Shown piece by piece: positions 11,429-55,400 of a DNA stretch of 64,000 nt; position 1 is the stretch's first letter, and the number at the start of each line of letters is the position of its first letter. This DNA comes from Ignavibacteriota bacterium. Lineage in GTDB: Bacteria; Bacteroidota; Ignavibacteria; Palsa-1295. Position numbers and translations under genes: made by a program. The stretch spans positions 448,001 to 512,000 of the forward strand of contig CAWBEI010000002.1 in NCBI GenBank assembly GCA_963787835.1. Reading direction: 5' to 3'. The notes below the pieces were generated by a model. It made no database searches, had not been told where the DNA came from, and saw only the letters and a program-made list of their open reading frames with translations.

Positions 11429-13042
11429 TTATCGCTTAGCTCGCTTTTTCGTTGCATAATGTTTCGCGGATTTCTTTGCTATGGGTTGAATTTTCTCCGC
11501 AATACTCTTCCCCTGCATAAAATGCAGCAGATAATCATACCCACCCGCCTTCGAATCCGTGCCGGACATGTTAAATCCGCCAAATGGATGCGCCCCGACC
11601 ATCGCGCCAGTACATTTGCGGTTGATGTAAAGGTTACCAACGAAAAATTCCTTCTTCGCGCGTTCGATATTCCTTTGGCTCTTTGAATAGACGGCTCCCG
11701 TCAAGCCGTATTCCGTATTATTTGCAACTTCGAGAGCTTCATCGAAATTTTTCACCGGAATAAGCGCCAGCACCGGACCGAAAATCTCTTCCTGCGCCAG
11801 CCGTGCATTCGGAGCAATATCGGCAACGACGGTCGGCTGGATGAAGTACCCTTCGGTTCCCGAACGTTCGCCACCGGCGACCACGCGGCCCTCTTTGCGG
11901 CCAATATCGATATAGCTCATGATGCTGTTAAATGCCTTCTCATTTACGACCGGCCCGATGCGAACATTCTTCGTAGGGTCGCCAATCTCTAATGCCTTCA
12001 CACGTTCGGCAATCTTCTGGACCATCTTCGGATACACCGATTGCTCGATGATCGCCCTGGAACACGCGGAACATTTCTGTCCCTGGAACCCATACGCGCT
12101 AACAACGATACCCTCTGCCGCTGCATCGAGATCGGCATCCTTCGCAACGACGATCGCATCCTTACCGCCCATTTCTGCAACCACGCGCTTGATCCATTTC
12201 TGCCCTTCGCGTGGTGTTGCAGCGTTCTGCGCGACTCGCAATCCCACTTGCTTCGAGCCAGTGAAGGAAATGAACCGCGTGATCGTACTATTCACCAGAT
12301 AATCCCCCACTTCGCCGCCCGGTGCAGTCAGGAAATTCAGTACTCCGGATGGAAGCTCCGCTTCTTCCATGATCTCGTGGAACAGCCAGCCCATCATCGG
12401 CGAATCGCTGGAGGGCTTGAGAACTATTGTGTTGCCCGTCACAATGGCGGCGGCTGACATCCCCACTAAGATCGCGAATGGGAAGTTCCACGGTGGAACG
12501 ATAACCCCGACGCCCAGCGGAATATATTCCAGCCAATCGTGCTCGCCTTTAAGCTGATGAAGCGGTTGCGGCCCACCAAAACGCATCATCTCGCGTGCAT
12601 AAAATTCCAGAAAATCGATAGCTTCAGCGGTATCGGCATCGGCTTCCGCCCAGTTCTTGCCGACTTCCCGCACCATCCATGCATTGATTTCATAGCGACG
12701 CCGCTTTGCGATCTTCGCGGCTTTGAAAATATAATTCGCTCGCTTGTCATACGGAACTTTGCTCCAGGTCTGGAATGCATTCGCAGCCGTTTGGAGCGCC
12801 TCTTCCGCATGTTCAACCGTTCCCTTCGCAAAATTACCGATGATCTCGCTCGGCCGGGCCGGATTGCGCGATGCGATCGCATCGCTCGTTCCAATGCGCT
12901 TGCCGCCGATCACATTAGGATAGATCTTGCCCAAACTGTCGCCCGTTTTGCGCAGCGCGGCTTCCATAGCCTTGCGCTCGCGGGGCTGGGTGTAATCTTT
13001 GTAGGTCTCGTTCTGAAATGCGGGGATTTTCGTCTTGGCCAT
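11429..13042 (-). CDS. pruA: L-glutamate gamma-semialdehyde (1-pyrroline-5-carboxylate) dehydrogenase
   Basis: EADADTAEAIDF, PPWNFP, FTGS, AEMGGK, GQKCSACSR, EEIFGP, SGTDSKAGG. Confidence 0.93.
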   Translation of the reverse strand: MAKTKIPAFQNETYKDYTQPRERKAMEAALRKTGDSLGKIYPNVIGGKRIGTSDAIASRNPARPSEIIGNFAKGTVEHAEEALQTAANAFQTWSKVPYDKRANYIFKAAKIAKRRRYEINAWMVREVGKNWAEADADTAEAIDFLEFYAREMMRFGGPQPLHQLKGEHDWLEYIPLGVGVIVPPWNFPFAILVGMSAAAIVTGNTIVLKPSSDSPMMGWLFHEIMEEAELPSGVLNFLTAPGGEVGDYLVNSTITRFISFTGSKQVGLRVAQNAATPREGQKWIKRVVAEMGGKDAIVVAKDADLDAAAEGIVVSAYGFQGQKCSACSRAIIEQSVYPKMVQKIAERVKALEIGDPTKNVRIGPVVNEKAFNSIMSYIDIGRKEGRVVAGGERSGTEGYFIQPTVVADIAPNARLAQEEIFGPVLALIPVKNFDEALEVANNTEYGLTGAVYSKSQRNIERAKKEFFVGNLYINRKCTGAMVGAHPFGGFNMSGTDSKAGGYDYLLHFMQGKSIAEKIQPIAKKSAKHYATKKRAKR

Positions 13043-13264
13043 GTAATAAAAAAATTAGAGTGCCGCAAAACACGCTTTTGCCGGGTTCTGCTCCATAGCC
13101 AAGCCGTAAGATTTTTTAACGAATGGTATTCCCATAGAAATAGGTGCCATTTTTCTTTCTTGTGAGTTCCCGATGACCCTCGTTTCCGAGCCGTTTTCGC
13201 CATTTTGTTGCAACAAATGTTTTCTCAAAGAACTCGTTCATAAAGAAAGCTATCCCATCCCCCT

Positions 13265-13294
13265 TTCATCTTTCATAATTCATACTTTATAATT
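13265..13294. repeat. Degenerate heptamer array (TTCATAA/TTCATAC type)
   Basis: TTCATCT TTCATAA TTCATAC TTTATAA. Confidence 0.6.
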
Positions 13295-13473
13295 ACCAAT
13301 AGGTGCCTATCAAAGCAATAACTAATATACGACAACATTTTCTCCCACACATGAAATGCGAAATTTTGTTAGCCTGCGTTGCCAAGCGTGGTGTTTATAT
13401 TTCGTATATTATATTGAGAATGATAGGCACCATTGCCGCGTTTTCGTTCTTTTAGTTTAACATTAAATAGAAA

Positions 13474-14685
13474 ATGGCCTTACCCAAAAACTTGCGTTCT
13501 ATCCATCCATTCCCGGCGAGAATGGCACCGGAGCTTGTGTGGGATGAATTGCCTGATCACTTGCCACGGCTGCGAGTTCTTGACCCAATGGCAGGTTCCG
13601 GCACAACGCTCGTGACAGCAAAGCTTCGAGGACACGAAGCAATCGGGTATGACCGTGACCCGCTTGCTGTACTGATTGCTCGTTCATGGCTGACGAACGT
13701 CTCAAAAACTGAGGTTGAAGCTAAAGGGTCTGAGATTTTGGCAAGAGCACGCGCAAGGGCACGGAATATGAAAATAGCTGATGCCTATCCCAGAAGTGCA
13801 GACGATGAAACTAAAGCTTTTGTACGCTATTGGTTTGACAGCACGAATCGTGTTCAATTAGCAGCACTATCTGAGTCAATTTCCCGGCTGCATGATCCAT
13901 CTCTTCGTGATTTAATGTGGTGCGCATTTTCACGACTTATAATTACGAAGAAAATAGGTGCATCGCTCGCAATGGATATTTCCCATAGCCGCCCGCACAG
14001 AAGCTATGAAAAGGCTCCCATTCAAGCATTCGACAGATTTGAGCAAGCTGTAAAATACATTGTAAAAGCAGCCCCTTTTCCGAATATTAAATCTGATGGG
14101 CTGCAAGCATCAGTGGGATTTGCAGATGCACGTCATTTACCGCTTGGCGATAGTACGGTGGATATTGTTATCACGTCTCCGCCATATCTAAATGCGATTG
14201 ATTACATTCGCGGGCACAAATTTTCTCTTATTTGGATGGGTCATAGCATTGAAAAGCTCCGAAATGTACGAACAACTAATGTGGGAACAGAGACCGTGGC
14301 AAGAGAAGAAGAAGGAGACATTCTGACTGAGCAAATCATGAAAATGATGTGCCCAGTTGAGACACTTTCAACGCGTAACGCTGGCATGTTGCGACGATAT
14401 GTGCATGACATGCGCGATGTTCTCTCAGAGATAAAACGTGTGTTACGTTCCCAAGGTAAAGCTATTTTTGTCGTCGGGAATTGTAACCTTCGTGATACAT
14501 TCGTGCAGAACTCAAAATGTATAGAAGGTCTTGCCGTGGGGCTTGGAATGGTTGTCAATAAAGTTCGGAGTAGAGCATTGCCAGAAAATCGGCGTTACCT
14601 TCCTCCCCCTGAATCATTAACAGCGGGCAAGGCATTAAATCGGCGTATGCGCGAAGAGGTGATTATCACTCTGATGAAGCCTTGA
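13474..14685 (+). CDS. Site-specific amino-DNA methyltransferase (probably N4-cytosine; motif I precedes motif IV)
   Basis: IHPFPARM, VLDPMAGSGTT (SAM binding), ITSPPY (catalytic). Confidence 0.9.
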   Translation: MALPKNLRSIHPFPARMAPELVWDELPDHLPRLRVLDPMAGSGTTLVTAKLRGHEAIGYDRDPLAVLIARSWLTNVSKTEVEAKGSEILARARARARNMKIADAYPRSADDETKAFVRYWFDSTNRVQLAALSESISRLHDPSLRDLMWCAFSRLIITKKIGASLAMDISHSRPHRSYEKAPIQAFDRFEQAVKYIVKAAPFPNIKSDGLQASVGFADARHLPLGDSTVDIVITSPPYLNAIDYIRGHKFSLIWMGHSIEKLRNVRTTNVGTETVAREEEGDILTEQIMKMMCPVETLSTRNAGMLRRYVHDMRDVLSEIKRVLRSQGKAIFVVGNCNLRDTFVQNSKCIEGLAVGLGMVVNKVRSRALPENRRYLPPPESLTAGKALNRRMREEVIITLMKP

Positions 14686-17292
14686 CTTAGCTCTTATAAC
14701 ATCATCCGCAAAAGCATCATTACTACGAAGGCTCTCCAGTTGACTTGCGACAGCAGCCGCAACGCGGGGCGCGCTTGCATTTACTATTATTTTGTCGCCA
14801 TCGATAGCCAAAAGATCAGGAATCAAAATTGACAAACCCTTTGCAACAGCAAGTACATCGTCCTGCTTTACTCCAACTGCATTAAGTTCATCTCTGCATA
14901 TGAGTGCTATTGTACTGGCAGAGAGAGCGTCCGGTATTTTCCGCTTGAGTTTTTCTAAAGCTTGTAGGAAAATATCGAATGTCAATGGTCTGCTATCTTT
15001 TAAATCAGTTTTGAGCTTGATTATCCACTGCGAAACCAATTCAGGATCGTGGAATTCAAAAAGCTTCTTAATCTTTGTGAGCGGTATCGCCCCGTATTCT
15101 ACCGTGTATTCTAAGAGCTTGCCCAAATCGGATGCTTTCATTGGGGTAACTTTTTGCTGTTCGCAACGAGTAACTAAGGCACCTTCAGTGAACCCTGGCG
15201 CAACAACCAGCGCGTAAGTTGCTCCATATCTTTCCCTATGCTCCACGATGCCATCAAGTTTTATGTTGCCAGTTGAGGCTTCGTCATGCTTTGAGCTCTT
15301 AGCGTCGAAAGAGAAGCTGTAAAGGGGAGGGTTGGGTTGCTTTACGGTTGGAGTGCTGGTTGTTGGCAAAGGAAATGCCCTTGCGATTCCTTCTGGTTCT
15401 CCCGATTTAGCAAGATCTTGTACATCAAACCCAATATAGCGCAGTGCATCAGAGAGAACGGCTTCAAGGTACTTCCAATTCTTACTATCATGTTGTGTTT
15501 GGAGAAGTAACTGTGCAATATGTGCGCCGGATTGTCTCCGTTGCATGGCTTGAAAGCGCATTAACTTGTCGCGATATTCCCTTAAACTATTTAACGACTC
15601 TGGATCAATTCCAATATCGAGGGCATACATATCGGAAAGAAGGTTAACCATAGCAATCGTTCGCAATAGTTCCTTCTCTCGTTTTGAATGCGAATATTCA
15701 GCAACGAAAGGATGTTGCTTGTTTACAACAATAGTGCTGTCAGATATCCGGAATTTCACGAAACTTCCATCGTCCGAATTCTCATATTTTACCTCATTAA
15801 GCGCAGTCGTGATGTTTTCCGCTGTATTCTCTCGCCAAGATTTGCGTCGCTCTTCCCGATTCGGGATGTTCGTCTCATCAAAAAGACCAGGCAAGGGAGC
15901 CTCCGTGCGGAGTGTCTGTGATACAACGTTTCTAAGGGGGTTTAGAGAAAGTACGCCTAATGACTTGACCAATATATCTCCACCATGAGGCATCATGGCA
16001 CTCTTGTCGCTGTCATATTCAGTCCTGACTTTATTAAAGACCCGCCTAAGAAAGGCACGGAAAATCTTTAATTCCCTCGATTCGCGGAGCTTCTCTCTAT
16101 CCGTTGTAAGAAATTCATTCAGCCCATCTGCCCTAACTGTCATTCGGAAACGGCCCCACGCTGCATGACTCAGATTTTTTTCACCAAAGCTCGGATCATT
16201 CTGATTAACCACGCGCCCAAGCACGTTTACAAAAAAACCTGTCGACGAGCTTCTCTCTTCGCTCTTGCCGGTAAACGGCTCCTGGAATAGTACGACTGTC
16301 CCCGTCACCATTCCCAATCCAGGTATCGAAACATGAGGCAGCGGATTATTGCTCGATTGAATCGGTACCTTTGCCTCCTCGTCGTCGCTCCCATCTCCTT
16401 CGTTAATTTCGATTGAATCAATTCCAAGACTTGGGCCAAGTATCCACTCCGCGATCTTAGGAGCAGCAATTTTAGAAGATGAGAGAAGATCGCCGTTTAA
16501 AGAGATTGCCATTTCGCTTCCGAATGGCAATGCCGCCTCAAGCATGCGACGAAGAATTCCTATCTTTAGTCCTTTGGCGATTGGCTTCAGATCGGATAAT
16601 ACAACCAGCGTCCAAGTTCCGTCAGTACTCCTCTTAAGAGCTGACTCAGGAGCGCCGAACTCATCTTCACTTAAATCACCAGCAGGGCGCGGGAACTTGT
16701 TTTGAATAAGTTTGAGAATTTCATCCCCGCCATACACAGTTTTAATGGCGGAAGTTAACTCCGATTCGGTAACCTCATAAAGGGGGATTTGTAAATCGGT
16801 AATCAAATGCGCAGACCCGCTTTGGTTTTGACGGGGAATCTTACCATAATCCATAGTAACCCGTCTAATTTTGCCATCCGAAGCTTTGCAAATATACGTG
16901 AGTTTGCCAGCTAGCACGTAAGTCGCCAACTTGCCTATTCCAAATTTGCCAATTATTTGCCGTCCGAACTCTTCCTTTTTTCCCTCCTTTGGTGAGAATG
17001 CTATATGCCAAAGTTGGCGTAATCCTTCTTCGTTCATTGATGCGCCGTTATCGAGAACCGACATAGTAGCATTCGGCTCATCAAGGTTCTCAGATATCCT
17101 AACATCAACACAATCAGCTCCTGCATCCCACCCGTTTGAAATTAGTTCTTCAAAGGCCTTTTGCGGTGAAGAGTACAAATGCTCACTAAATTGCTCTAGA
17201 AAGCGAGTACCCAGCTCCACTGGGATTTTTACCACCTCCTGTCCTATTGTTTCGGGCGTATCGTTTTTCATTAGGGCAGTAACTGAACTCAT
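14635..17292 (-). CDS. MORC/GHKL ATPase fused to a C-terminal PD-(D/E)xK (Mrr-like) endonuclease domain
   Basis: LYSSPQKAFEELISNGWDAGA, DNGASM, IGKFGIGKLA, GTW; C-terminal LEAVLSDALRYIGF..SGEPEGIA..FSFDAKSS; likely start 17292 or 17271, not 17544. Confidence 0.85.
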   Translation of the reverse strand: MSSVTALMKNDTPETIGQEVVKIPVELGTRFLEQFSEHLYSSPQKAFEELISNGWDAGADCVDVRISENLDEPNATMSVLDNGASMNEEGLRQLWHIAFSPKEGKKEEFGRQIIGKFGIGKLATYVLAGKLTYICKASDGKIRRVTMDYGKIPRQNQSGSAHLITDLQIPLYEVTESELTSAIKTVYGGDEILKLIQNKFPRPAGDLSEDEFGAPESALKRSTDGTWTLVVLSDLKPIAKGLKIGILRRMLEAALPFGSEMAISLNGDLLSSSKIAAPKIAEWILGPSLGIDSIEINEGDGSDDEEAKVPIQSSNNPLPHVSIPGLGMVTGTVVLFQEPFTGKSEERSSSTGFFVNVLGRVVNQNDPSFGEKNLSHAAWGRFRMTVRADGLNEFLTTDREKLRESRELKIFRAFLRRVFNKVRTEYDSDKSAMMPHGGDILVKSLGVLSLNPLRNVVSQTLRTEAPLPGLFDETNIPNREERRKSWRENTAENITTALNEVKYENSDDGSFVKFRISDSTIVVNKQHPFVAEYSHSKREKELLRTIAMVNLLSDMYALDIGIDPESLNSLREYRDKLMRFQAMQRRQSGAHIAQLLLQTQHDSKNWKYLEAVLSDALRYIGFDVQDLAKSGEPEGIARAFPLPTTSTPTVKQPNPPLYSFSFDAKSSKHDEASTGNIKLDGIVEHRERYGATYALVVAPGFTEGALVTRCEQQKVTPMKASDLGKLLEYTVEYGAIPLTKIKKLFEFHDPELVSQWIIKLKTDLKDSRPLTFDIFLQALEKLKRKIPDALSASTIALICRDELNAVGVKQDDVLAVAKGLSILIPDLLAIDGDKIIVNASAPRVAAAVASQLESLRSNDAFADDVIRAKSRLHQSDNHLFAHTPI

Positions 17293-17388
17293 TGGATGAC
17301 AGTGCCCGCAAAAAAACAAATGTGCCCAGCTCTTTACTTTCGTCCCTTCGAGACCATCATATTCTACTTCGCTCCCCCTATAAATCCG

Positions 17389-17449: not shown

Positions 17450-18013
17450 ATGCAAACCTTACATTTCAAAACATCTGCGGATTTCCGGCAGTGGCTGGAG
17501 AAGAACCACACGGGATCAGGTGGTATATGGTTACGCATGTTCAAAAAAGATTCACAGGAACGATCCCTGACGTATGCGGAAGCGCTCGATCAGGCGCTTT
17601 GCTATGGTTGGATCGATGGCCAGAAAAAGCCCTTCGACGAACTATCATGGCTGCAGAAATTTACACCGAGACGCCCCAAAAGCGGGTGGTCGAAAATAAA
17701 CACGCAGCATGTGGAGCGCCTTATCGAGGCTGGAACTATGACACCCGCAGGAATGAAAGCGGTTGAAGCAGCAAAGTCCGATGGCCGGTGGGAGATCGCA
17801 TATAGTTCATCCAGAAGCGCTGCCCCGCCGGAAGATTTTCTGAAGGAGTTGAGTAAAAATAAAAAAGCAGAAGCCTTTTTTAAAACATTGAACAAAGCAA
17901 ATGTGTATTCGATCGTGTATCGTCTTGAAACGGCAAAGAAGCCGGAAACCAGAGAAAAGCGGATGAAGACGATCCTTGCCATGCTGGAGCAAGGCACAGC
18001 ATTTCATCCTTGA
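17450..18013 (+). CDS. YdeI/OmpD-associated family protein
   Basis: FRQWLEKNH, EALDQALCYGWIDG, FTPRRPKSGWSKIN, AKKPETREKR. Confidence 0.92.
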   Translation: MQTLHFKTSADFRQWLEKNHTGSGGIWLRMFKKDSQERSLTYAEALDQALCYGWIDGQKKPFDELSWLQKFTPRRPKSGWSKINTQHVERLIEAGTMTPAGMKAVEAAKSDGRWEIAYSSSRSAAPPEDFLKELSKNKKAEAFFKTLNKANVYSIVYRLETAKKPETREKRMKTILAMLEQGTAFHP

Positions 18014-18368: not shown

Positions 18369-18890
18369 TCATCTGATTTTATGATATAGTCCAAGTCCTG
18401 TATCGATTCGTTGAACCGTATTGTAAGGAAGAACGGGCTCCAACATAATTCCTGACGAATGACCGTCATAAAGAAGGTTCAAAGCAAGATAATATAATAT
18501 TGAGTCGCTCCTCTTATAACCCAACAGGGTTACCACCCAAAATCGTGAATCGTTCTCCGATTGATCATGAACCGCTGAAGCTGTCGTATCAAACGAGGCG
18601 AATCTATAATGGATTGTATTCTCCGATCTCGTTCTCATGAAAAACTTATCGGTATCCCATTCTCCGCCGGGATAGCGGTGCAAATACGATCCACGGTAAT
18701 CTATTCCTACTTGCTGCACGTCGTGTAAAAAGATTAAAGTGTCATCTTTATTTGGTATGAGCACAAACGTTCCATATACGTCATCTCGACTCGGGAAATA
18801 GGGAGTGCATGATCCAACGATCAGGAGCAAGAATGCTAAAATTCTGCCATATTTGTTTGGATCATGCCTATACCGTTCCATCGATTCCAT
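18369..18890 (-). CDS. Hypothetical lipoprotein
   Basis: GGAGG 5 nt before the ATG at 18890; KYGRILAFLLLIVGSC lipobox-like signal; AT-richer DNA. Confidence 0.55.
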   Translation of the reverse strand: MESMERYRHDPNKYGRILAFLLLIVGSCTPYFPSRDDVYGTFVLIPNKDDTLIFLHDVQQVGIDYRGSYLHRYPGGEWDTDKFFMRTRSENTIHYRFASFDTTASAVHDQSENDSRFWVVTLLGYKRSDSILYYLALNLLYDGHSSGIMLEPVLPYNTVQRIDTGLGLYHKIR

Positions 18891-19104
18891 TCGGTCCTCC
18901 GATTGGAATGCAACTACTCTGCTACCGTCCGGGTTCCGACACTTAATTTGGTGTGTATTCGTATCGTAGATAAAATAGCGTCCATAGTAGACCCCTGGTT
19001 TCGGTGTGAGGACATCGGGAGATATTTGATCGCAGGGATCAGGATAAAGTGGAAGATGGGCGTGCCACTGAACCCCCTCGCTGTCTATTGCGTTGAGAAT
19101 TATT

Positions 19105-19323
19105 ATGCAAGATAGCATTACCATATCCATTCCGAAAGAGATCAAGCGGGCTCTAGACCGGGAGCGCAAAGCAAAAGGCATTTCGCGCAGCGCGGTCGTT
19201 TCCGATGCCCTGAAAAAATACCTCGCGCTTCGCGAGATCGCAGAACTCCGTCAAAAGATGATTCCCAAAACGCGCGCGCAGGGCATCTATTCCGATGTGG
19301 ACGTTTTCGCGCGTGTGTCGTGA
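19105..19323 (+). CDS. Ribbon-helix-helix (CopG-like) antitoxin
   Basis: SITISIPKEIKRALD...GISRSAVVSDALKKYL, C-terminal GIYSDVDVF. Confidence 0.85.
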   Translation: MQDSITISIPKEIKRALDRERKAKGISRSAVVSDALKKYLALREIAELRQKMIPKTRAQGIYSDVDVFARVS

Positions 19324-46540: not shown

Positions 46541-49500
46541 TTACTGTTTTTCGATGGTGAGCTTGCTCGAGAGCGTGGCGCTGCGGCCGTCGGCTCCGGT
46601 GGCGGTCATCTCATAGAGATAGCTGCCGCTCGGTAGCGAGGTCAGGTCGAGCTTCACGTTCTGGGTGCCCGCCTCGAACGACTGGTTCGTCACCTCGCTG
46701 TTGACCACCTTGCCCGTCACGTCCATCACCCGCAGCGTTACCTGCGAGGCTTCCGGAAGCGTGAACGATACCTCCGTCACACCGGCCGAGGGATTCGGAT
46801 AGCTCTGGCCCAGTGTAAAGCCAAGCTGGCTTGCATCCGGACCCAGTTCCACCGTATTCGAGTACGTCTCCGCACCCGTCTCATCGACCGCCGCAATGCG
46901 GTACGTGTACGACTGCGAAGGATCCAGACCCGTGATCGAGGAGGCATAGTCCGTCTGATCCGCGACCGCCGTCACCGGATGCAGCACCGTCCAGCTGTTC
47001 TGGTTCTGCTGCTCCACATCGTAGCGTACCACGTTCGGCAAGCCTACCACATCCCACGTGATCGTCGCGGCATTACCGCTGACCCGCTGAATGCTCGCAC
47101 TCACATTGTCGATCGGTAGGATCGTACCATTGTGACTGCGGAAGAAGGCAAAGGCTGCTGCAAGCGTTCGTGTCGTACCGCTCGTCAATGCATCCTGTGC
47201 CGCCGTGCTCGGAGACGTCTGGTGCGGGTTCGCCCAGTCAAAGGCATAGAACACCGTGTTCACCAGGGGATCGTAATACGATACACCCGCTCCATTGTTC
47301 GGATTGCTGTACGAGTAGTTCGAGTACGTGTACGCATACCCGTTGACCTTCGGACCCACCGCAGGCGTCGTCAGGGATGGCATGATCACGTTCGGTGTCA
47401 GGCTCGAGGTCAGATCCGTCGAGCATTCCTCGCAGTCACTCCCGTTCGGATTGACCGGGATCGAAAGGCTGTCCGCAAACGTCCAGTACGCCGGCTGCTG
47501 GCCCACGATCCGGCCAATATACGAGGAACTCGTCGGGTAGTTCGCCACATACTGTGTGTGCATCGTCGATTGCATCCATTGCGTATCCGTCACCGGATTG
47601 TTCGACTGCACATACCCATTGTAGTAGGCAATGTGCTGGCCCGCGATCACAAGGCTCTTCTTCGCATAGCTCTGCCCTGCGCCCAGATACCGCGTGATCT
47701 CATCCGTCTCCTGCAGCGTCGGACCGCCCTGACCCGTCGACTGACCGGCAACCGGGGCAACGCCCGGATCGCCGCTCGACCACACGATCGTCCACCACGG
47801 CGTGTAATCGATGATCGTCGTGTTCGGAAGGCCCTTCGGAGCGTTACGGTCGATCGTGTCGAACGGTACCCCTAATCGGTTCAACGCCGCGATCACCGAA
47901 TCACGGTTCTGACGGCCATCCGAGGCCGCACCATTATAGGAAAGCAATACCGCATTCTGCTTCAACAGGATCGTAAACGTCTTCGTCTGCGAGTTGTTCG
48001 CGTCGTTCTGGTCGTTCGGGACGCTCACCGTTACCCGGAACACCCCCGTGCTGTTCGACGCCGTCAACGCCGGACCCTGGAACGCGACGCTCTTCGACTC
48101 GCCCACCTGCCACGTCAACGGGGCAGACGTGCCCGTATACACCGTCGTCCATACACCATTGACCGAACGCTGCACCGTCGCCGTGACCTTCTGGCTATAG
48201 ACGCCTACGCTCGATAGGTTCTTCACCACGCCCGTGATCCATAACGGACTCTCCGTCGTCACTAAGGACGTGTCGCTCGTCTGCGAGAACCCGCCCGGCT
48301 GTGAGATCTCTAAGACCGCAAGATCGTTCGTGAACTGGAACCCGTCCCATTCATCCGCCCCGATGTCCGGGCTCGGATTGTTCTGCGAACGAACGTCTCC
48401 GTCGAAATCATGAGCCTCCGACGACGTACCAAGCCACGCGCCGTTGTTCGAGGCCGGACTTTCGATGTACGTCAAGGCCGGTGGCATGTGCAACGAATCC
48501 ACTCCCATCGCTGGCGTACCGAACAACGGATCGCCCGATAACGAGTGGCTGTCCTGACCCACATACGTACGCCAGTCGTTCAAACGGCGGAAGTACAGGC
48601 TCTGGAATACCGTCCCATACCGTGCGTCGTACTCCGTCACCGAGTCGAAGACGTTCGTGCCACGCAAATCGAATACGTTATAGTCCGAACTGATCGAACT
48701 TGCATACGGACGAGGTACCTCTAAGTTGTAGTTCGTGTACGGACCGGTGCCCGTGTTCTGGAAAATGTTGTTCCAGATGAACGCGTGCTTCGCGTATTTG
48801 ATCGTGATGTTCGATGTCGCGTTGTTCGTCGAGATCGAGTTGTTGAACACCGAATCCTTGTCCGTCGAATACGGAACCGTGCCCGACGTCGAAGAGATCG
48901 TCGTCATCAGGATCGGGAACACCTTCCCCGCGCTCGTACGAAGGTCTAAGATCATGTTGTTCGTCAATCGGTTCTGCGTTACCGCCGGTAACGTCGATTT
49001 CACATTCGTCAGACCCGTGCTCGTGTACTGCCACGACGACTGCTGCAGCGCGATCCCATGCGTGTTGCCCGCTGCCGATGTCATGATACGGATCCGGTTC
49101 GCATCGATCCAGGCACCCGTCACGTTACCCGTGTCACCCGCCCACTGAGGGTTCGAAGGCGGGCCGATGTACGTGTTCATGTTCGGCTGTACAATGCCAT
49201 ACACATTCCACGTCGCTCCGCCGCCCTGCGGTACTACGTTCGCGTTCACGTTCGAGATCTCGTTGTGTGAGATCACGATCCCGGTCTCGCTGTTGAACTG
49301 GATGCCCGCGTACGATAATGGGTTCGACGACGTACCTACCGTGTTCCGCGTGATCACGTCATTGTAGTTGCGCCACGTCGTGTACGCACCCTTCACCGGA
49401 TCGTACGCATCGTGGTACCCGTGATCGTAGATCCCATACTTCGCATTGCCAAGCTCGCAGTTGTTGACCGTGATATTGCTCGTCGCAACCGTATCGTGGA

Positions 49501-52150
49501 TCCCGGATGAATACACGAAAAAGTTGTGCTCGTTGTAGATACGAACCGCCGAGCACGAGTCGTTCGCGAACATCCCGTTCCCGTGGATCACCAGATCCTT
49601 CAGCGTGATGTTGCTTGCACCGTATTCGATACCGAAGACCGCACCCGCCTTCGTCTCGTTGCTGACGATCGTCAAGCCGCGCTTCAAGGGCTCTGCCGTC
49701 ACCTTGTCCGGGGACGGAACCGTCGACGGGTTATAGCCCTCGAAGTTCATATAACCAGGGAAGTGGTCGCCCATGTAAAAACAGAATGGCTGTGAGCCGC
49801 TGAACGTGATCGTCGGATTTTGGCCCGGATATGGGATCCATGTTACCGTCGAACTCGCCGAAAGGCCGTTGATCTGGCCAAGGTCCACCGCGCCATACGG
49901 AGAGGCCACATCGGTGTTCCCGTTCTCCGTGTAGGACGCATCCGTCAGGATCATCCGTACGTTCGCTCCGATACCGCGGAACCGCATCGTGTCCACCGCC
50001 TGATGGATCGTCTGGAACTGGCGCCCTACGCCCACATAGTAATCGCCCTTCAAACGGTCGATGATCGAAAACTGCGTGCACGACGTGTCGTTCGTCTGGT
50101 TCTCGTCGCTGCCCGCGCTGCTGCTGAAGTCTGCGATCGCGCACAGCGTGTAGCATCCCGGCGGGATCGTCGCGATCGTGTGGTATGCACCCGCGTTCGC
50201 TGTCGTTGGAAACTTGAACAGCACCTGACCCTGGTCGATGTTCAAGGCATCTTCTACCGTATCCGACTGGAATGCCAGCAACCCATCCGAACAACGGCGG
50301 ATCTGGCAACGGATCTTGAAGCTGAACAGGTCCGATACACCCACCGACTGGAACAGCGCCGATGGCTGCCACGTCGTCAAATACGGCTTCTCTTCACCCG
50401 GCTGAGGGTTGAACACTCCCACCGAGGCCGCATCGTAAAGTGGAAGGATCGGCGTCGGAGATTTCGTCGTGTCGTCCGCACGCAGCTGATCGTTACCCAT
50501 GATCGCAATACCGAAGACCGTATCCACGCCCAGCGTCACCGGAGTCCACGTCGGGCTTGAAGGGAACGCCGTATCGTAATACGCGCCTCTACCCGGACCC
50601 TGACCGCTCGAGGAATAATCCGTCACCCCATCCGAGTTGCCACCCATTGGGCCGGAAGGCCAGTATGGGATCACGACCGTGTCACGGAAGACCACTTTGC
50701 CCGTCGCGTCGTGTACCGTTGCCGTCACCGGTACATTGTATTGCGTGTCCGTTCCAAGGTTACGGAAACGGATCGAGATCGGCGTCGCAATATCCACCTG
50801 AGTACGGGAACCCGCCGGAGGATTGATCACCGAGACCCCCTTGATATCGTTCGGTGGAGCGCACGTCCACTCATCCGTCGATTGGTTGTCCGATGGATCC
50901 TGATCTGCCGTCGGCTGCAGATTGAACACCGTCATCGTGTCCTCGTAAATACCGTAGCCCGTGCTCTGCGCTTCGCCGAACTGCGCCGGTTCGCCAGGTG
51001 CGAACGCCGGGAACGTGATCGTCGTCTGGCTGAACCCTGCCGGGATCTGCGAGCTGTTCAGCGTGATCGTCTGATTATACACCTGGCCTACGCCATACTC
51101 CGAGATCGTGAAGTTCACCTGGCACGACGTCGAGACCTGGGAACCCGAATTAGCAAGGATCGCCGTTGGGGTGAAATACGTATTGATCGCCTGTGGAGTT
51201 TCGCTGGCAGGATTGGTGATCGTACCGGCCGTCAGATTATATGGCCAAGCAATCGCGATGCGGTAACTGACCTGCGGGAGCAACGGCTCCGTCGCGTTGT
51301 CTTCCGCATATCCGTAATAATCGACGATCGGCTGATTCGATGGGTTGCCGCCGTTGCCGTTCCAGCCAATGGTCAGGAAGTCGCCGCCGCCCGATCCCTT
51401 AATGCCGGTCAGGCCGCTGTAAGCTTCAATAAGCCAGCCGCCATAGGAGTAATAGTAACCCCAGCTCGAATTAAATGTACCACTCTGTGGACCATAATTG
51501 AATTGGAAACTCGATATACCGCTTTCATAGACAACAGCCTGAAAATCTCCATTGAGGCCGGCCGAAGAGCCGTATTCATATGCATAAAGGCCGAGGGTCT
51601 GCACGACGAGCTCGCGGTTCGGGGCAGAGCCTAAAACGGCATAAGAGCAATTCGGAGCCGGACCATACGTGAGGAAGCCCTCGAACGGTGCTAGCTTATA
51701 GTTTGGATAATAGGACTCATAAGGAGCATAGTCATATTCACTCTCCAAAAAATCATACTCATAATCCTCGTACACATAGCCATACTCACTCAGATAAAAA
51801 AAATCGGCATCATAATCGTACGCATAGTTGGCGGTCCAAGTGGGGCTAAAGATGACAGAACCGTATGAATTAACTTCAAAATTGCCGGTGGTGGCGATCT
51901 GTTGGTTTTCAAACCGGAACGCGAACGGCACCGTATAACTCGGAGACATCTGATAATAATATCCCAGACCCGAGACCGCCGTTCCGCTGATCGCACTCCA
52001 GTTCGGGCCTGAACCCAAACCCTGAGCATCAGGCGTCGTGATCATGTGCACAAGATAGCTTCTCATAGAGTACGTTTGCGCACGCACGACCCCGGTGGAA
52101 ATCAAGCCGAACGCAACGAGCATGATTAGGAAAGCGTAGAGTTTTTTCAT
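46541..52150 (-). CDS. Giant T9SS-secreted surface protein, paralog 1 (Tyr-rich NIDO-like head, CARDB/Ig-like domains, beta-helix, Fn3-like domain, CTD)
   Basis: Signal peptide VRA-Q; VPFAFRF..NSYG..APF..LGSAPNRELVV head; NDIKGVSVINP and NDLAVLEISQP Ig-like starts; PDIGADE; CTD LGQSYPNP...SGSYLYEM. Confidence 0.9.
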   Translation of the reverse strand: MKKLYAFLIMLVAFGLISTGVVRAQTYSMRSYLVHMITTPDAQGLGSGPNWSAISGTAVSGLGYYYQMSPSYTVPFAFRFENQQIATTGNFEVNSYGSVIFSPTWTANYAYDYDADFFYLSEYGYVYEDYEYDFLESEYDYAPYESYYPNYKLAPFEGFLTYGPAPNCSYAVLGSAPNRELVVQTLGLYAYEYGSSAGLNGDFQAVVYESGISSFQFNYGPQSGTFNSSWGYYYSYGGWLIEAYSGLTGIKGSGGGDFLTIGWNGNGGNPSNQPIVDYYGYAEDNATEPLLPQVSYRIAIAWPYNLTAGTITNPASETPQAINTYFTPTAILANSGSQVSTSCQVNFTISEYGVGQVYNQTITLNSSQIPAGFSQTTITFPAFAPGEPAQFGEAQSTGYGIYEDTMTVFNLQPTADQDPSDNQSTDEWTCAPPNDIKGVSVINPPAGSRTQVDIATPISIRFRNLGTDTQYNVPVTATVHDATGKVVFRDTVVIPYWPSGPMGGNSDGVTDYSSSGQGPGRGAYYDTAFPSSPTWTPVTLGVDTVFGIAIMGNDQLRADDTTKSPTPILPLYDAASVGVFNPQPGEEKPYLTTWQPSALFQSVGVSDLFSFKIRCQIRRCSDGLLAFQSDTVEDALNIDQGQVLFKFPTTANAGAYHTIATIPPGCYTLCAIADFSSSAGSDENQTNDTSCTQFSIIDRLKGDYYVGVGRQFQTIHQAVDTMRFRGIGANVRMILTDASYTENGNTDVASPYGAVDLGQINGLSASSTVTWIPYPGQNPTITFSGSQPFCFYMGDHFPGYMNFEGYNPSTVPSPDKVTAEPLKRGLTIVSNETKAGAVFGIEYGASNITLKDLVIHGNGMFANDSCSAVRIYNEHNFFVYSSGIHDTVATSNITVNNCELGNAKYGIYDHGYHDAYDPVKGAYTTWRNYNDVITRNTVGTSSNPLSYAGIQFNSETGIVISHNEISNVNANVVPQGGGATWNVYGIVQPNMNTYIGPPSNPQWAGDTGNVTGAWIDANRIRIMTSAAGNTHGIALQQSSWQYTSTGLTNVKSTLPAVTQNRLTNNMILDLRTSAGKVFPILMTTISSTSGTVPYSTDKDSVFNNSISTNNATSNITIKYAKHAFIWNNIFQNTGTGPYTNYNLEVPRPYASSISSDYNVFDLRGTNVFDSVTEYDARYGTVFQSLYFRRLNDWRTYVGQDSHSLSGDPLFGTPAMGVDSLHMPPALTYIESPASNNGAWLGTSSEAHDFDGDVRSQNNPSPDIGADEWDGFQFTNDLAVLEISQPGGFSQTSDTSLVTTESPLWITGVVKNLSSVGVYSQKVTATVQRSVNGVWTTVYTGTSAPLTWQVGESKSVAFQGPALTASNSTGVFRVTVSVPNDQNDANNSQTKTFTILLKQNAVLLSYNGAASDGRQNRDSVIAALNRLGVPFDTIDRNAPKGLPNTTIIDYTPWWTIVWSSGDPGVAPVAGQSTGQGGPTLQETDEITRYLGAGQSYAKKSLVIAGQHIAYYNGYVQSNNPVTDTQWMQSTMHTQYVANYPTSSSYIGRIVGQQPAYWTFADSLSIPVNPNGSDCEECSTDLTSSLTPNVIMPSLTTPAVGPKVNGYAYTYSNYSYSNPNNGAGVSYYDPLVNTVFYAFDWANPHQTSPSTAAQDALTSGTTRTLAAAFAFFRSHNGTILPIDNVSASIQRVSGNAATITWDVVGLPNVVRYDVEQQNQNSWTVLHPVTAVADQTDYASSITGLDPSQSYTYRIAAVDETGAETYSNTVELGPDASQLGFTLGQSYPNPSAGVTEVSFTLPEASQVTLRVMDVTGKVVNSEVTNQSFEAGTQNVKLDLTSLPSGSYLYEMTATGADGRSATLSSKLTIEKQ

Positions 52151-52295
52151 AGACTTCAATGAATGGAAAAATAAGTGACTACAAATCGTTTTGCCCCAAA
52201 GGACGACCAGTTAAATAAAATAATACCTCAAGAATCGACCGGTTTTCCCCCAAGTATTTAACTCGACACGCCAGAACCACCGAAAGTTACATCCC
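52151..52295 (-). promoter_or_regulatory. Promoter and ~120-nt leader of giant gene 1
   Basis: TAACTTTCG (-7-like) at 52289-52281; leader blocks shared with copy 2. Confidence 0.5.
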
Positions 52296-52402
52296 GTTCT
52301 CAATTTTTTTGAAAATTTCTTAGAGAATCCTAAAACTAAGGCTTTGTCATATCTCCTTTGGCAACCCACAATTTTATATTGTATTTACTGCGTTTAAATT
52401 GG

Positions 52403-52436
52403 GACTGCCCGCCGTGGATAACCACGGTGGGCAGTC
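52403..52436 (-). terminator. Strong hairpin downstream of giant gene 2
   Basis: Identical to 46445-46478. Confidence 0.7.
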
Positions 52437-52498
52437 GCTTGATTTCGGTTGGGATGTTTTTTGCTTCCCGTATGTCCGTCTTACCGAGCTTTCCCGTC

Positions 52499-55400
52499 TT
52501 ACTGTTTTTCGATGGTGAGCTTGCTCGAGAGCGTGGCGCTGCGGCCGTCGGCTCCGGTGGCGGTCATCTCATAGAGATAGCTGCCGCTCGGTAGCGAGGT
52601 CAGGTCGAGCTTCACGTTCTGGGTGCCCGCCTCGAACGACTGGTTCGTCACCTCGCTGTTGACCACCTTGCCCGTCACGTCCATCACCCGCAGCGTTACC
52701 TGCGAGGCTTCCGGAAGCGTGAACGATACCTCCGTCACACCGGCCGAGGGATTCGGATAGCTCTGGCCCAGTGTAAAGCCAAGCTGGCTTGCATCCGGAC
52801 CCAGTTCCACCGTATTCGAGTACGTCTCCGCACCCGTCTCATCGACCGCCGCAATGCGGTACGTGTACGACTGCGAAGGATCCAGACCCGTGATCGAGGA
52901 GGCATAGTCCGTCTGATCCGCGACCGCCGTCACCGGATGCAGCACCGTCCAGCTGTTCTGGTTCTGCTGCTCCACATCGTAGCGTACCACGTTCGGCAAG
53001 CCTACCACATCCCACGTGATCGTCGCGGCATTACCGCTGACCCGCTGAATGCTCGCACTCACATTGTCGATCGGTAGGATCGTACCATTGTGACTGCGGA
53101 AGAAGGCAAAGGCTGCTGCAAGCGTTCGTGTCGTACCGCTCGTCAATGCATCCTGTGCCGCCGTGCTCGGAGACGTCTGGTGCGGGTTCGCCCAGTCAAA
53201 GGCATAGAACACCGTGTTCACCAGGGGATCGTAATACGATACACCCGCTCCATTGTTCGGATTGCTGTACGAGTAGTTCGAGTACGTGTACGCATACCCG
53301 TTGACCTTCGGACCCACCGCAGGCGTCGTCAGGGATGGCATGATCACGTTCGGTGTCAGGCTCGAGGTCAGATCCGTCGAGCATTCCTCGCAGTCACTCC
53401 CGTTCGGATTGACCGGGATCGAAAGGCTGTCCGCAAACGTCCAGTACGCCGGCTGCTGGCCCACGATCCGGCCAATATACGAGGAACTCGTCGGGTAGTT
53501 CGCCACATACTGTGTGTGCATCGTCGATTGCATCCATTGCGTATCCGTCACCGGATTGTTCGACTGCACATACCCATTGTAGTAGGCAATGTGCTGGCCC
53601 GCGATCACAAGGCTCTTCTTCGCATAGCTCTGCCCTGCGCCCAGATACCGCGTGATCTCATCCGTCTCCTGCAGCGTCGGACCGCCCTGACCCGTCGACT
53701 GACCGGCAACCGGGGCAACGCCCGGATCGCCGCTCGACCACACGATCGTCCACCACGGCGTGTAATCGATGATCGTCGTGTTCGGAAGGCCCTTCGGAGC
53801 GTTACGGTCGATCGTGTCGAACGGTACCCCTAATCGGTTCAACGCCGCGATCACCGAATCACGGTTCTGACGGCCATCCGAGGCCGCACCATTATAGGAA
53901 AGCAATACCGCATTCTGCTTCAACAGGATCGTAAACGTCTTCGTCTGCGAGTTGTTCGCGTCGTTCTGGTCGTTCGGGACGCTCACCGTTACCCGGAACA
54001 CCCCCGTGCTGTTCGACGCCGTCAACGCCGGACCCTGGAACGCGACGCTCTTCGACTCGCCCACCTGCCACGTCAACGGGGCAGACGTGCCCGTATACAC
54101 CGTCGTCCATACACCATTGACCGAACGCTGCACCGTCGCCGTGACCTTCTGGCTATAGACGCCTACGCTCGATAGGTTCTTCACCACGCCCGTGATCCAT
54201 AACGGACTCTCCGTCGTCACTAAGGACGTGTCGCTCGTCTGCGAGAACCCGCCCGGCTGTGAGATCTCTAAGACCGCAAGATCGTTCGTGAACTGGAACC
54301 CGTCCCATTCATCCGCCCCGATGTCCGGGCTCGGATTGTTCTGCGAACGAACGTCTCCGTCGAAATCATGAGCCTCCGACGACGTACCAAGCCACGCGCC
54401 GTTGTTCGAGGCCGGACTTTCGATGTACGTCAAGGCCGGTGGCATGTGCAACGAATCCACTCCCATCGCTGGCGTACCGAACAACGGATCGCCCGATAAC
54501 GAGTGGCTGTCCTGACCCACATACGTACGCCAGTCGTTCAAACGGCGGAAGTACAGGCTCTGGAATACCGTCCCATACCGTGCGTCGTACTCCGTCACCG
54601 AGTCGAAGACGTTCGTGCCACGCAAATCGAATACGTTATAGTCCGAACTGATCGAACTTGCATACGGACGAGGTACCTCTAAGTTGTAGTTCGTGTACGG
54701 ACCGGTGCCCGTGTTCTGGAAAATGTTGTTCCAGATGAACGCGTGCTTCGCGTATTTGATCGTGATGTTCGATGTCGCGTTGTTCGTCGAGATCGAGTTG
54801 TTGAACACCGAATCCTTGTCCGTCGAATACGGAACCGTGCCCGACGTCGAAGAGATCGTCGTCATCAGGATCGGGAACACCTTCCCCGCGCTCGTACGAA
54901 GGTCTAAGATCATGTTGTTCGTCAATCGGTTCTGCGTTACCGCCGGTAACGTCGATTTCACATTCGTCAGACCCGTGCTCGTGTACTGCCACGACGACTG
55001 CTGCAGCGCGATCCCATGCGTGTTGCCCGCTGCCGATGTCATGATACGGATCCGGTTCGCATCGATCCAGGCACCCGTCACGTTACCCGTGTCACCCGCC
55101 CACTGAGGGTTCGAAGGCGGGCCGATGTACGTGTTCATGTTCGGCTGTACAATGCCATACACATTCCACGTCGCTCCGCCGCCCTGCGGTACTACGTTCG
55201 CGTTCACGTTCGAGATCTCGTTGTGTGAGATCACGATCCCGGTCTCGCTGTTGAACTGGATGCCCGCGTACGATAATGGGTTCGACGACGTACCTACCGT
55301 GTTCCGCGTGATCACGTCATTGTAGTTGCGCCACGTCGTGTACGCACCCTTCACCGGATCGTACGCATCGTGGTACCCGTGATCGTAGATCCCATACTTC

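Follow-up and report, generated by a model that had tools for sequence, protein, structure and literature searches.

Can a DNA methyltransferase and a nuclease that carries its own ATPase make up a restriction-modification (R-M) system? The question is raised by a 64,000-nt stretch of an Ignavibacteriota genome (contig CAWBEI010000002.1, positions 448,001 to 512,000 of the forward strand; hereafter the window), which holds two convergent genes: a methyltransferase gene at 13474-14685 on the forward strand (403 aa) and a GHKL ATPase-nuclease gene at 14635-17292 on the reverse strand (885 aa from the ATG at 17292, or 877 aa from an alternative ATG at 17268), whose product we call the effector. 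The genes overlap by 51 nt at their 3' ends (14635..14685) and are not an operon. Both open reading frames lie where a preliminary description of the locus had drawn them, and all the motifs that it named are present in the two proteins. We put at about 0.65 the probability that the pair is a self-contained R-M system in which an ATP-gated clamp licenses cutting.

Architecture of the ATPase-nuclease

The effector carries the motifs EELISN (residues 48-53), DNGASM (81-86), GKFGIGK (115-121), IVVNKQHPF (521-529), EPEG (632-635) and FDAK (662-665). Its N-terminal GHKL ATPase domain (residues ~15-240; 16573..17250, reverse strand, as are all the domains below) matches PF13589 with E 6e-17 and has conserved E49, N53, D81, G83 and G118/G120; E49, N53, D81 and G83 are present in 102/102 aligned ATPase relatives. 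An S5-like middle domain follows (residues ~241-430; 16003..16572), with conserved loops and an invariant R399, and then a helical linker and a domain that includes IVVNKQHPF (residues ~431-590; 15523..16002), in which N524 and H527 are invariant in 102/102 relatives. The best fold matches of the full effector model are Hsp90/TRAP1, SMCHD1 and MORC2-4. A family profile (102 relatives, 25-71% identity) is collinear with GRP94, the ATPase being followed by the LNVSRE loop and then by FEINPRHPLI. R399 aligns with the arginine of the LNVSRE loop, which we take to be the Hsp90 catalytic arginine, and IVVNKQHPF aligns with FEINPRHPLI (conditional E 6e-6, independent E 1.1, in a part of the model that is of low confidence), a segment presumably belonging to the Hsp90 dimerisation domain. 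The IVVNKQHPF domain is accordingly worded here as a likely Hsp90-like C-terminal dimerisation domain, and an Atlas search with residues 425-600 returned unnamed clusters only (0.82). Within the S5 loops, modelled at pLDDT <50, residues K343, S350, R360, N363, F369-G370 and H376 are conserved and form a candidate DNA-reading surface.

The preliminary description had called the protein a MORC/GHKL ATPase. The GHKL and S5 modules are indeed present, but unlike MORC proteins, none of the relatives (0/102) fully matches the signature GhXhhpXXRhl; the window protein reads GFFVNVLGRVV, and across the family the spacing of G and R is kept in 102/102 and the polar position in 0/102. The layout is Hsp90-like instead.

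The C-terminal part, residues 585-860, was modelled with AF2 together with 69 relatives (pLDDT 85). It comprises a PD-(D/E)xK nuclease domain (residues ~585-770; 14983..15540; E610, P633-E634, D663, K665 and H685) and a winged-helix domain (residues ~771-860; 14713..14982). The closest VIA match of the nuclease model is FokI (Z 16.1, root mean square deviation 2.8, 152 residues), followed by HindIII (Z 15.4) and the BspD6I subunits (14.6 for Nt.BspD6I, and 14.1), with the next match at 10.0. Foldseek supports the same folds (E 9e-5 to 6e-4), and a profile match covers the ADAKS of HindIII (E 0.006); identity to FokI, HindIII and BspD6I is 12-18%. The C-terminus had earlier been read as an Mrr-like PD-(D/E)xK nuclease, of which the nuclease fold holds good and the Mrr likeness does not: the models predict a FokI/HindIII/BspD6I-like fold that is not chiefly Mrr-like, and Mrr_cat matches just 9/69 C-terminal domains, weakly, the window protein not among them. 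Nor is there a variant acidic residue, as had been thought. Position 634 is E in 52/65 full-length members and D in 13/65, which makes E634 the family norm and no defect, and since all four combinations of D and E occur at positions 634 and 663, the two do not covary through compensating swaps. The catalytic set E610, E/D634, D/E663 and K665 is intact in 65/65 full-length loci and in 98/102 database proteins. The tail (model residues 187-266) matches winged-helix proteins at Z 6.5-7.7, a range common for chance arrangements, and is the least conserved part of the protein, with a median pairwise identity of 27% vs 40-46% for the nuclease, S5 and ATPase domains.

The same nuclease module occurs with a different head on a Bacillus mycoides plasmid, in a 683-aa winged-helix protein (L081:3702-5753) that has the nuclease domain alone in common with the effector (30% identity, residues 602-745). 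Its gene adjoins HEPN and PLD genes, and no methyltransferase is annotated there.

The methyltransferase

The methyltransferase has the motifs DPMAGSGTT (residues 37-45) and TSPPY (234-238) and matches PF01555 and the PADLOC model MTase_II (E 1.5e-26). Its motifs follow the alpha-class order, with the FxGxG-like motif at 37-45, a target-recognition region at ~150-176 (D-x-SHSRPH) and SPPY at 235-238; SPPY is present in 57/57 of the partner methyltransferases that entered the trees described below. N4-cytosine methyltransferases are among its PDB matches and, from SPPY and these homologues, the product is predicted to be N4-methylcytosine. The recognition motif SR-x-I-x-x-K...D-x-S-[HR]-SRPH is kept in 53/57 partners, one member having AH for SH. 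A methyltransferase encoded on the small plasmid of Deinococcus radiodurans is 26% identical to the window enzyme and, to judge by its location, is probably M.DraR1, which has been described as an alpha-class SPPY N4-cytosine methyltransferase (PMC6712171). Metagenomes hold dozens of methyltransferase relatives at 70-81% identity, above the closest ATPase relative found (71%).

Linkage of the two genes across phyla

Among 7991 candidates, 967 proteins matched the effector at E<=0.001, the best 120 sharing 60-71% identity with it if one self fragment is left aside, and GTDB genomes contain at least 438 pattern-confirmed stretches with effector relatives. Gene neighbourhoods were counted in the best 80 of these 438 stretches, whose tree spans 14 phylum-level groups; six loci are cut by contig ends and 74 have intact flanks. 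A homologue of the methyltransferase adjoins the ATPase in 69/74 intact loci, so that the two genes do co-occur elsewhere, as the preliminary interpretation required. The 69 pairs comprise 58 with the ATPase before the methyltransferase and 6 with the reverse order, all co-directional, and 5 that are convergent. The cassette is a coherent, widespread family and likely acts against foreign DNA. At one further locus (L045), a 5-methylcytosine methyltransferase, counted as a sixth type, adjoins the ATPase, and an HNH gene is also present.

H376 is kept in 55/56 effectors with a standard partner and in 5/9 without one, a small and non-independent sample. Two Bacteroidota loci (L056 and L070) encode ATPase-nucleases with no neighbouring methyltransferase and a rewritten S5 loop that lacks H376 and W379, their catalytic residues being intact; one of the two sits in a conjugative element. 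These effectors may have a changed specificity or act alone.

The only recurring extra gene encodes a Z1-domain superfamily 2 (SF2) helicase, found in 8/80 loci on distant branches of the tree and accompanied in three of them by a protein of 150-160 aa; every other gene recurs in 8/80 loci at most. The preliminary description had stressed that no helicase or specificity subunit is involved. This is true of the insert, which has no helicase or specificity gene, and of this genome, in which the Z1 helicase has no match, and fails for the eight relatives. To examine the flanks, 160 candidates (>=200 aa, within 1.5 kb) were collected and the 103 nearest taken, of which 9 fragments or near-duplicates were dropped. 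Among the remaining 94 proteins, 19 match PADLOC models (a raw count without a background rate), six of them Z1 helicases; the matches include parts of Type I, IIG and III R-M, BREX and Hma systems. No full-length ATPase relative was found in plasmids or phages, E. coli genomes gave no DNA match, and viral contigs gave motif-level methyltransferase matches only.

Exchange of the methyltransferase between pairs

Trees of the 57 ATPase-methyltransferase pairs (FastTree or quick IQ-TREE) place the two window genes in different company. The window ATPase groups with L001, L002, L004, L007, L022 and L035 (support 99), and the window methyltransferase with L004, L007, L072, L073 and L079 (support 96), although the ATPases of L072, L073 and L079 are just ~30% identical to that of the window. 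Approximately unbiased (AU) tests on 30/57 pairs, with groups that were named after inspection of the FastTree trees, reject the clade of either gene when it is imposed on the tree of the other (p 5e-58 and 3e-5). On these trees, the window methyltransferase has been swapped with its recognition motif kept, in keeping with an endonuclease that has a fixed target of its own and with partners that form no obligate complex or tight interface.

Other partners of the methyltransferase and a tentative target site

A survey seeded with the methyltransferase covered 34 genome loci, three of them the seeds, in four phyla, and neighbours within ~1.5 kb. The ATPase is the neighbour in 10 loci, an NgoMIV-family protein in 6, an unassigned protein with faint NgoMIV likeness in 2 and a Z1 helicase in 1. 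Two more NgoMIV pairs come from metagenome loci (PF09015, 346 and 385 bits). The NgoMIV-linked methyltransferases form a group neighbouring the ATPase-linked clade, and share 14-15/24 residues of the recognition motif with the window enzyme vs 3/24 for outgroups. NgoMIV cuts GCCGGC. Sister methyltransferases with such partners therefore give a CCGG-core site as a lead, and a hexamer such as GCCGGC is, by this analogy, our best and still doubtful candidate for the target. Three points tell against the lead: GCCGGC is not depleted in the cassette genes (see below), five of the eight NgoMIV-linked loci in all are near-copies, and the motifs differ at key places, HTRPH in the NgoMIV-linked enzymes vs HSRPH in the window. 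Words avoided genome-wide (GTMKAC, CATATG, CTCGAG and others) were dropped as target evidence, because the insert is recent and such avoidance uninformative.

Several other associations of this methyltransferase family came to light. In Chloroflexota (L253-L257, L260 and L111), it lies upstream of a conserved open reading frame of 220-270 aa, which is followed by further open reading frames; those of 220-270 aa that were scanned have no Pfam or PADLOC match, no nuclease was recognised within 1.5 kb, and the arrangement is possibly another undescribed module. An unassigned protein family with faint NgoMIV likeness (E 0.18) stands beside sister methyltransferases at L112:1684-2418, L252:2664-3524 and L276:2415-3515; the L112-type partner has no PADLOC or Pfam match, and these proteins are candidates for uncharacterised Type II restriction enzymes. 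On an Allorhizobium plasmid (L105; NZ_CP049245.1, 183395-189534), a 42%-identical methyltransferase is divergent from an operon that encodes a second amino-methyltransferase, a GHKL-ATPase/histidine-kinase fusion and two unknown proteins, reminiscent of R-M-linked two-component-like elements (PMC8011034).

A proposed mechanism and its alternatives

The pair shares with Type II R-M systems separate, linked methyltransferase and endonuclease genes and a known restriction fold with intact catalytic residues. Orthodox Type II enzymes cleave site-specifically at fixed positions, are blocked by cognate methylation and need no ATP; the conserved ATPase suggests an ATP requirement here, and so a departure from that definition. 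We propose that the methyltransferase would mark a fixed short site with N4-methylcytosine and that the effector would cut DNA whose site is unmethylated. The effector would act as an Hsp90-type dimer joined at the IVVNKQHPF domain. DNA would enter the lumen of the clamp, where the site would be read by the conserved S5 loops, possibly together with the winged helix. ATP binding would then shut the N-terminal gate, using R399 as Hsp90 uses its counterpart, and closure would put two FokI-like domains on the DNA, their pairing being needed for a double-strand cut. Methylation of the site would block the cutting step. The methyltransferase probably works apart and not as a subunit.

Several observations weigh against this reading. 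Taken singly, the Hsp90 middle- and C-domain matches are nonsignificant (independent E 57 and 1.1), and because of this we treat the Hsp90-type clamp as a supported inference and not a demonstration; the full-length model of the effector has a pTM of 0.46. In the effector, we recognised no domain dedicated to target recognition. Five of the 74 intact loci have no methyltransferase homologue, and four of these have no methyltransferase of any kind among the scanned neighbours, while in 4/57 pairs the methyltransferase has a different recognition region and the effector loops are still largely conserved. Where ATPases are 55-65% identical, their methyltransferases reach just ~51%, which makes the effector the more conserved partner; the endonucleases of orthodox Type II pairs are not known to be so. 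The methyltransferase family is not exclusive to the ATPase, which accompanies it in 10/34 seeded loci, and has no recognised partner in 15/34. Finally, GCCGGC is not depleted in the cassette genes (67 observed vs 60.6 expected, ratio 1.10), nor is any 4-6-mer depleted there beyond the flanking genes, as judged by synonymous-codon shuffles.

A first alternative is that the effector is a stand-alone, infection-triggered nuclease of the kind represented by VcSduA and Tiamat. Its clamp would sense a phage protein or a DNA structure and then unleash a nuclease of little sequence specificity, the methyltransferase being a minor or separate companion. VcSduA (GHKL with PD-(D/E)xK) and Tiamat function as single genes, four intact loci lack a scanned methyltransferase, the effector is unusually conserved across phyla, and the methyltransferase family also occurs alone or with other partners. 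Linkage in 69/74 loci, however, survives inversion, reordering and gene replacement, as that of a passenger hardly would; the nuclease belongs with FokI and HindIII and not with DUF4263 or DUF3883; and the retention of H376 follows the presence of a standard partner, within the small and non-independent sample given above. We hold this explanation to be rather unlikely. The missing target-recognition domain could also mean that the methyltransferase is a specificity subunit, like BrxX in BREX, that binds unmethylated sites and recruits a reader-less ATPase-nuclease. This would suit the largely conserved effector loops alongside three other methyltransferase types and the occurrence of the same methyltransferase family beside other GHKL or Z1 machines (L105, L107, L109 and L245), and is hard to square, as a protein interface, with exchange between ~40%-identical methyltransferases. 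The recognition region of such a subunit should moreover diversify, yet it is conserved in 53/57, and sister methyltransferases serve classical NgoMIV-type partners; we judge a specificity subunit improbable.

The Z1 helicases in distant parts of the tree allow a further view, that the pair is what remains of a helicase-assisted system pared down to its core, with the SF2 helicase and sometimes the 150-160-aa protein as its other parts, and that two-gene copies nick only or are weakly active. According to Iyer et al. 2008 (PMC2292703), ~70% of MORC neighbourhoods contain an SF2 helicase. Against this, 72/80 loci have no Z1 gene within the examined flank, this genome has none, and the catalytic residues are intact throughout, which leaves little room for the idea. 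Least credible to us, with only a slight chance of being right, is a MutL/MutH-like repair or chromosome-handling module with methylation as strand discriminator: a GHKL ATPase with a C-terminal nuclease is a MutL-like layout, but the distribution is patchy (the methyltransferase in 2/401 genomes of the phylum, the ATPase in 0/40 relatives), the insert is of low GC in a variable slot, and no repair genes are conserved nearby.

We return to the R-M reading. Its boldest form, which we regard as possible but speculative, is that a complete Hsp90-type machine has been turned into a restriction enzyme that would hold DNA in the client-binding lumen, read a CCGG core by the S5 loops in place of a conventional recognition domain and use ATP-driven gate closure as proofreading before its two FokI-like domains cut. 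If true, the pair would represent a restriction class outside Types I-IV that depends on ATP and makes do with two genes and no helicase, and would offer a simple bacterial model of methylation-sensitive DNA clamping by GHKL ATPases.

Relation to known systems

The pair is a distinct family within a kind that has been predicted since 2008. Of the five Type II subfamilies with a GHKL head that Orlowski and Bujnicki 2008 (PMC2441816) list, one has a PD-(D/E)xK domain. The effector resembles R.HgiDII/R.BbrUII (NF050001) in having an N-terminal GHKL ATPase on a restriction enzyme with a separate methyltransferase adjacent, and the putative subfamily of R.VeiORF1182P in its C-terminal PD-(D/E)xK domain. 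Unlike BbrUII/HgiDII, it matches NF050001 over residues 32-158 alone, with 55.2 bits vs a cut-off of 550. The HgiDII C-terminus is assigned to no fold and, compared by eye, the C-termini of HgiDII and R.VeiORF1182P look unlike that of the effector. What sets the family apart from these GHKL-headed Type II enzymes is that it combines a FokI-like nuclease and a winged helix with a methyltransferase of the alpha class (SPPY).

Iyer, Abhiman and Aravind 2008 (PMC2292703) predicted R-M operons with MORC and paraMORC1-5 ATPases, a minority of them helicase-free; paraMORC3 has a fused restriction-fold nuclease, and the authors proposed that ATP drives the coupling between recognition and cleavage. 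Later literature on VcSduA identifies paraMORC3 with GHKL-Shedu. The effector shares with MORC/paraMORC proteins the GHKL and S5 module and a mobile R-M setting, and may be among the sequences listed in 2008; unlike typical MORC operons, most effector loci have no helicase. In VcSduA, or Shedu type 1D (Adams et al. 2025, PMC12137116; Gu et al., 10.1101/2023.08.10.552793), ATPase and nuclease mutations each abolish defence, and the effector is like it in joining a GHKL ATPase, a clamp-like middle domain and a PD-(D/E)xK nuclease in one chain. It is unlike Shedu in that the defining DUF4263 was not detected, with no Pfam match at E 0.1 on the whole effector and none in the 25/34 families listed for the 69 C-terminal domains; VcSduA also acts without a cognate methyltransferase. 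Tiamat (10.64898/2026.09.30.754977) is an antiphage protein with an Hsp90-like ATPase, a PD-(D/E)xK nuclease and a predicted clamp dimer, and the effector joins the same two activities. Tiamat has DUF3684/DUF3883 and TPR-like folds where the effector has S5, and neither DUF3684 nor DUF3883 has a match in the effector in Pfam, PADLOC or C-terminal family scans; moreover, Tiamat has a preference for single-stranded DNA, and methyltransferases are found near it only where helicases are present too. FokI, HindIII and BspD6I share the nuclease fold, M.DraR1 the alpha-class SPPY layout and NgoMIV systems the sister methyltransferases, and none of these has an ATPase. The identities are too low (12-18% to the nucleases, 26% to M.DraR1) for a target site to be transferred from FokI, HindIII, BspD6I or M.DraR1.

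The pair thus fits no named system, as had been said of it, PADLOC giving only two REase_II matches to the ATPase domain of the effector. The design is not without precedent: accounts of GHKL-headed Type II enzymes and of MORC/paraMORC operons date from 2008, and VcSduA and Tiamat are antiphage. Our literature search, with most subscription papers and REBASE outside it, found no biochemical work on any ATPase-headed enzyme that has a cognate methyltransferase, nor any paper on the effector family. That GHKL ATPases serve in restriction was predicted in 2008, and for the question of how they do so this family offers a tractable test case, with two genes, at least 438 GTDB relatives and nameable catalytic residues; specificity can be mapped with natural variants whose methyltransferase is swapped, of another type or missing. 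Defence inventories undercount the family, because PADLOC 2.0 and NCBIfam give weak ATPase-domain matches only. No paradigm is overturned, since the design was predicted and the related fusions VcSduA and Tiamat have already been shown to defend; what the present analysis adds is the collinearity with Hsp90, a tested methyltransferase exchange, a target lead and the hotspot context of the slot.

The acquired insert and its surroundings

The cassette lies between pruA (11429-13042, reverse strand) and a YdeI/OmdA gene, ydeI (17450-18013, forward strand; PF13376). Six relatives were compared around pruA. In a congener (G002), similarity to the window stops after 13331 and resumes at 17371, and another insert of ~4.4 kb fills the space between. 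This puts the approximate extent of the window's insert in this variable slot at 13332..17370 (~4.0 kb); a second relative (G006) has just ~0.8 kb there, and the other four are more divergent and do not define the ends. A 969-aa open reading frame started at TTG (to 17544) was rejected for the effector because it overlaps ydeI and runs past the boundary at ~17370. The AT-richer island seen earlier is borne out by a GC content of 45.3% vs 53.4% for pruA (39-49% in 500-nt windows), and 16/889 4-kb windows of the genome have a GC content equal to or below that of the insert. Both genes are present in one copy in the genome. Across 40 related genomes the ATPase has no full-length match and weak ATPase-domain matches alone in four, and of the 401 genomes of the phylum, the two with the methyltransferase include this one. 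The two-gene insert is recently acquired. No terminal or att-like repeats were found at the insert and no mobility genes were seen there, and promoter-like sites are at chance level (9 vs 8.9). A 507-nt public soil contig is identical to 14592-15098 with zero differences and crosses the gene junction; the run may be the source sample.

The G002 insert in the same slot (L101:7145-11394) is itself defence-like, with Dam-like, HARE-HTH and HEPN genes: it holds split or broken pieces of a Dam-family (D12) methyltransferase, a HepT-like protein, a HARE-HTH protein and DUF7226, and a PIN-domain gene lies on the far side of ydeI in that genome. Upstream of pruA, at 13136-13294, the public contigs of two or three runs part or come together again at ~13136-13173 and 13294, a sign that the left edge of the insert may hold an element that is repeated or variable. 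Past ydeI, a second low-GC stretch contains an open reading frame of 270 aa (18369-19181, reverse strand) that has no Pfam match and is absent from G002 and G006. Farther along the window, two tandem paralogous proteins of ~1880 aa with C-terminal type IX secretion tails (46541-58159, reverse strand) are followed by a 1339-aa ASH/Ig-domain protein and then by an OmpA protein.

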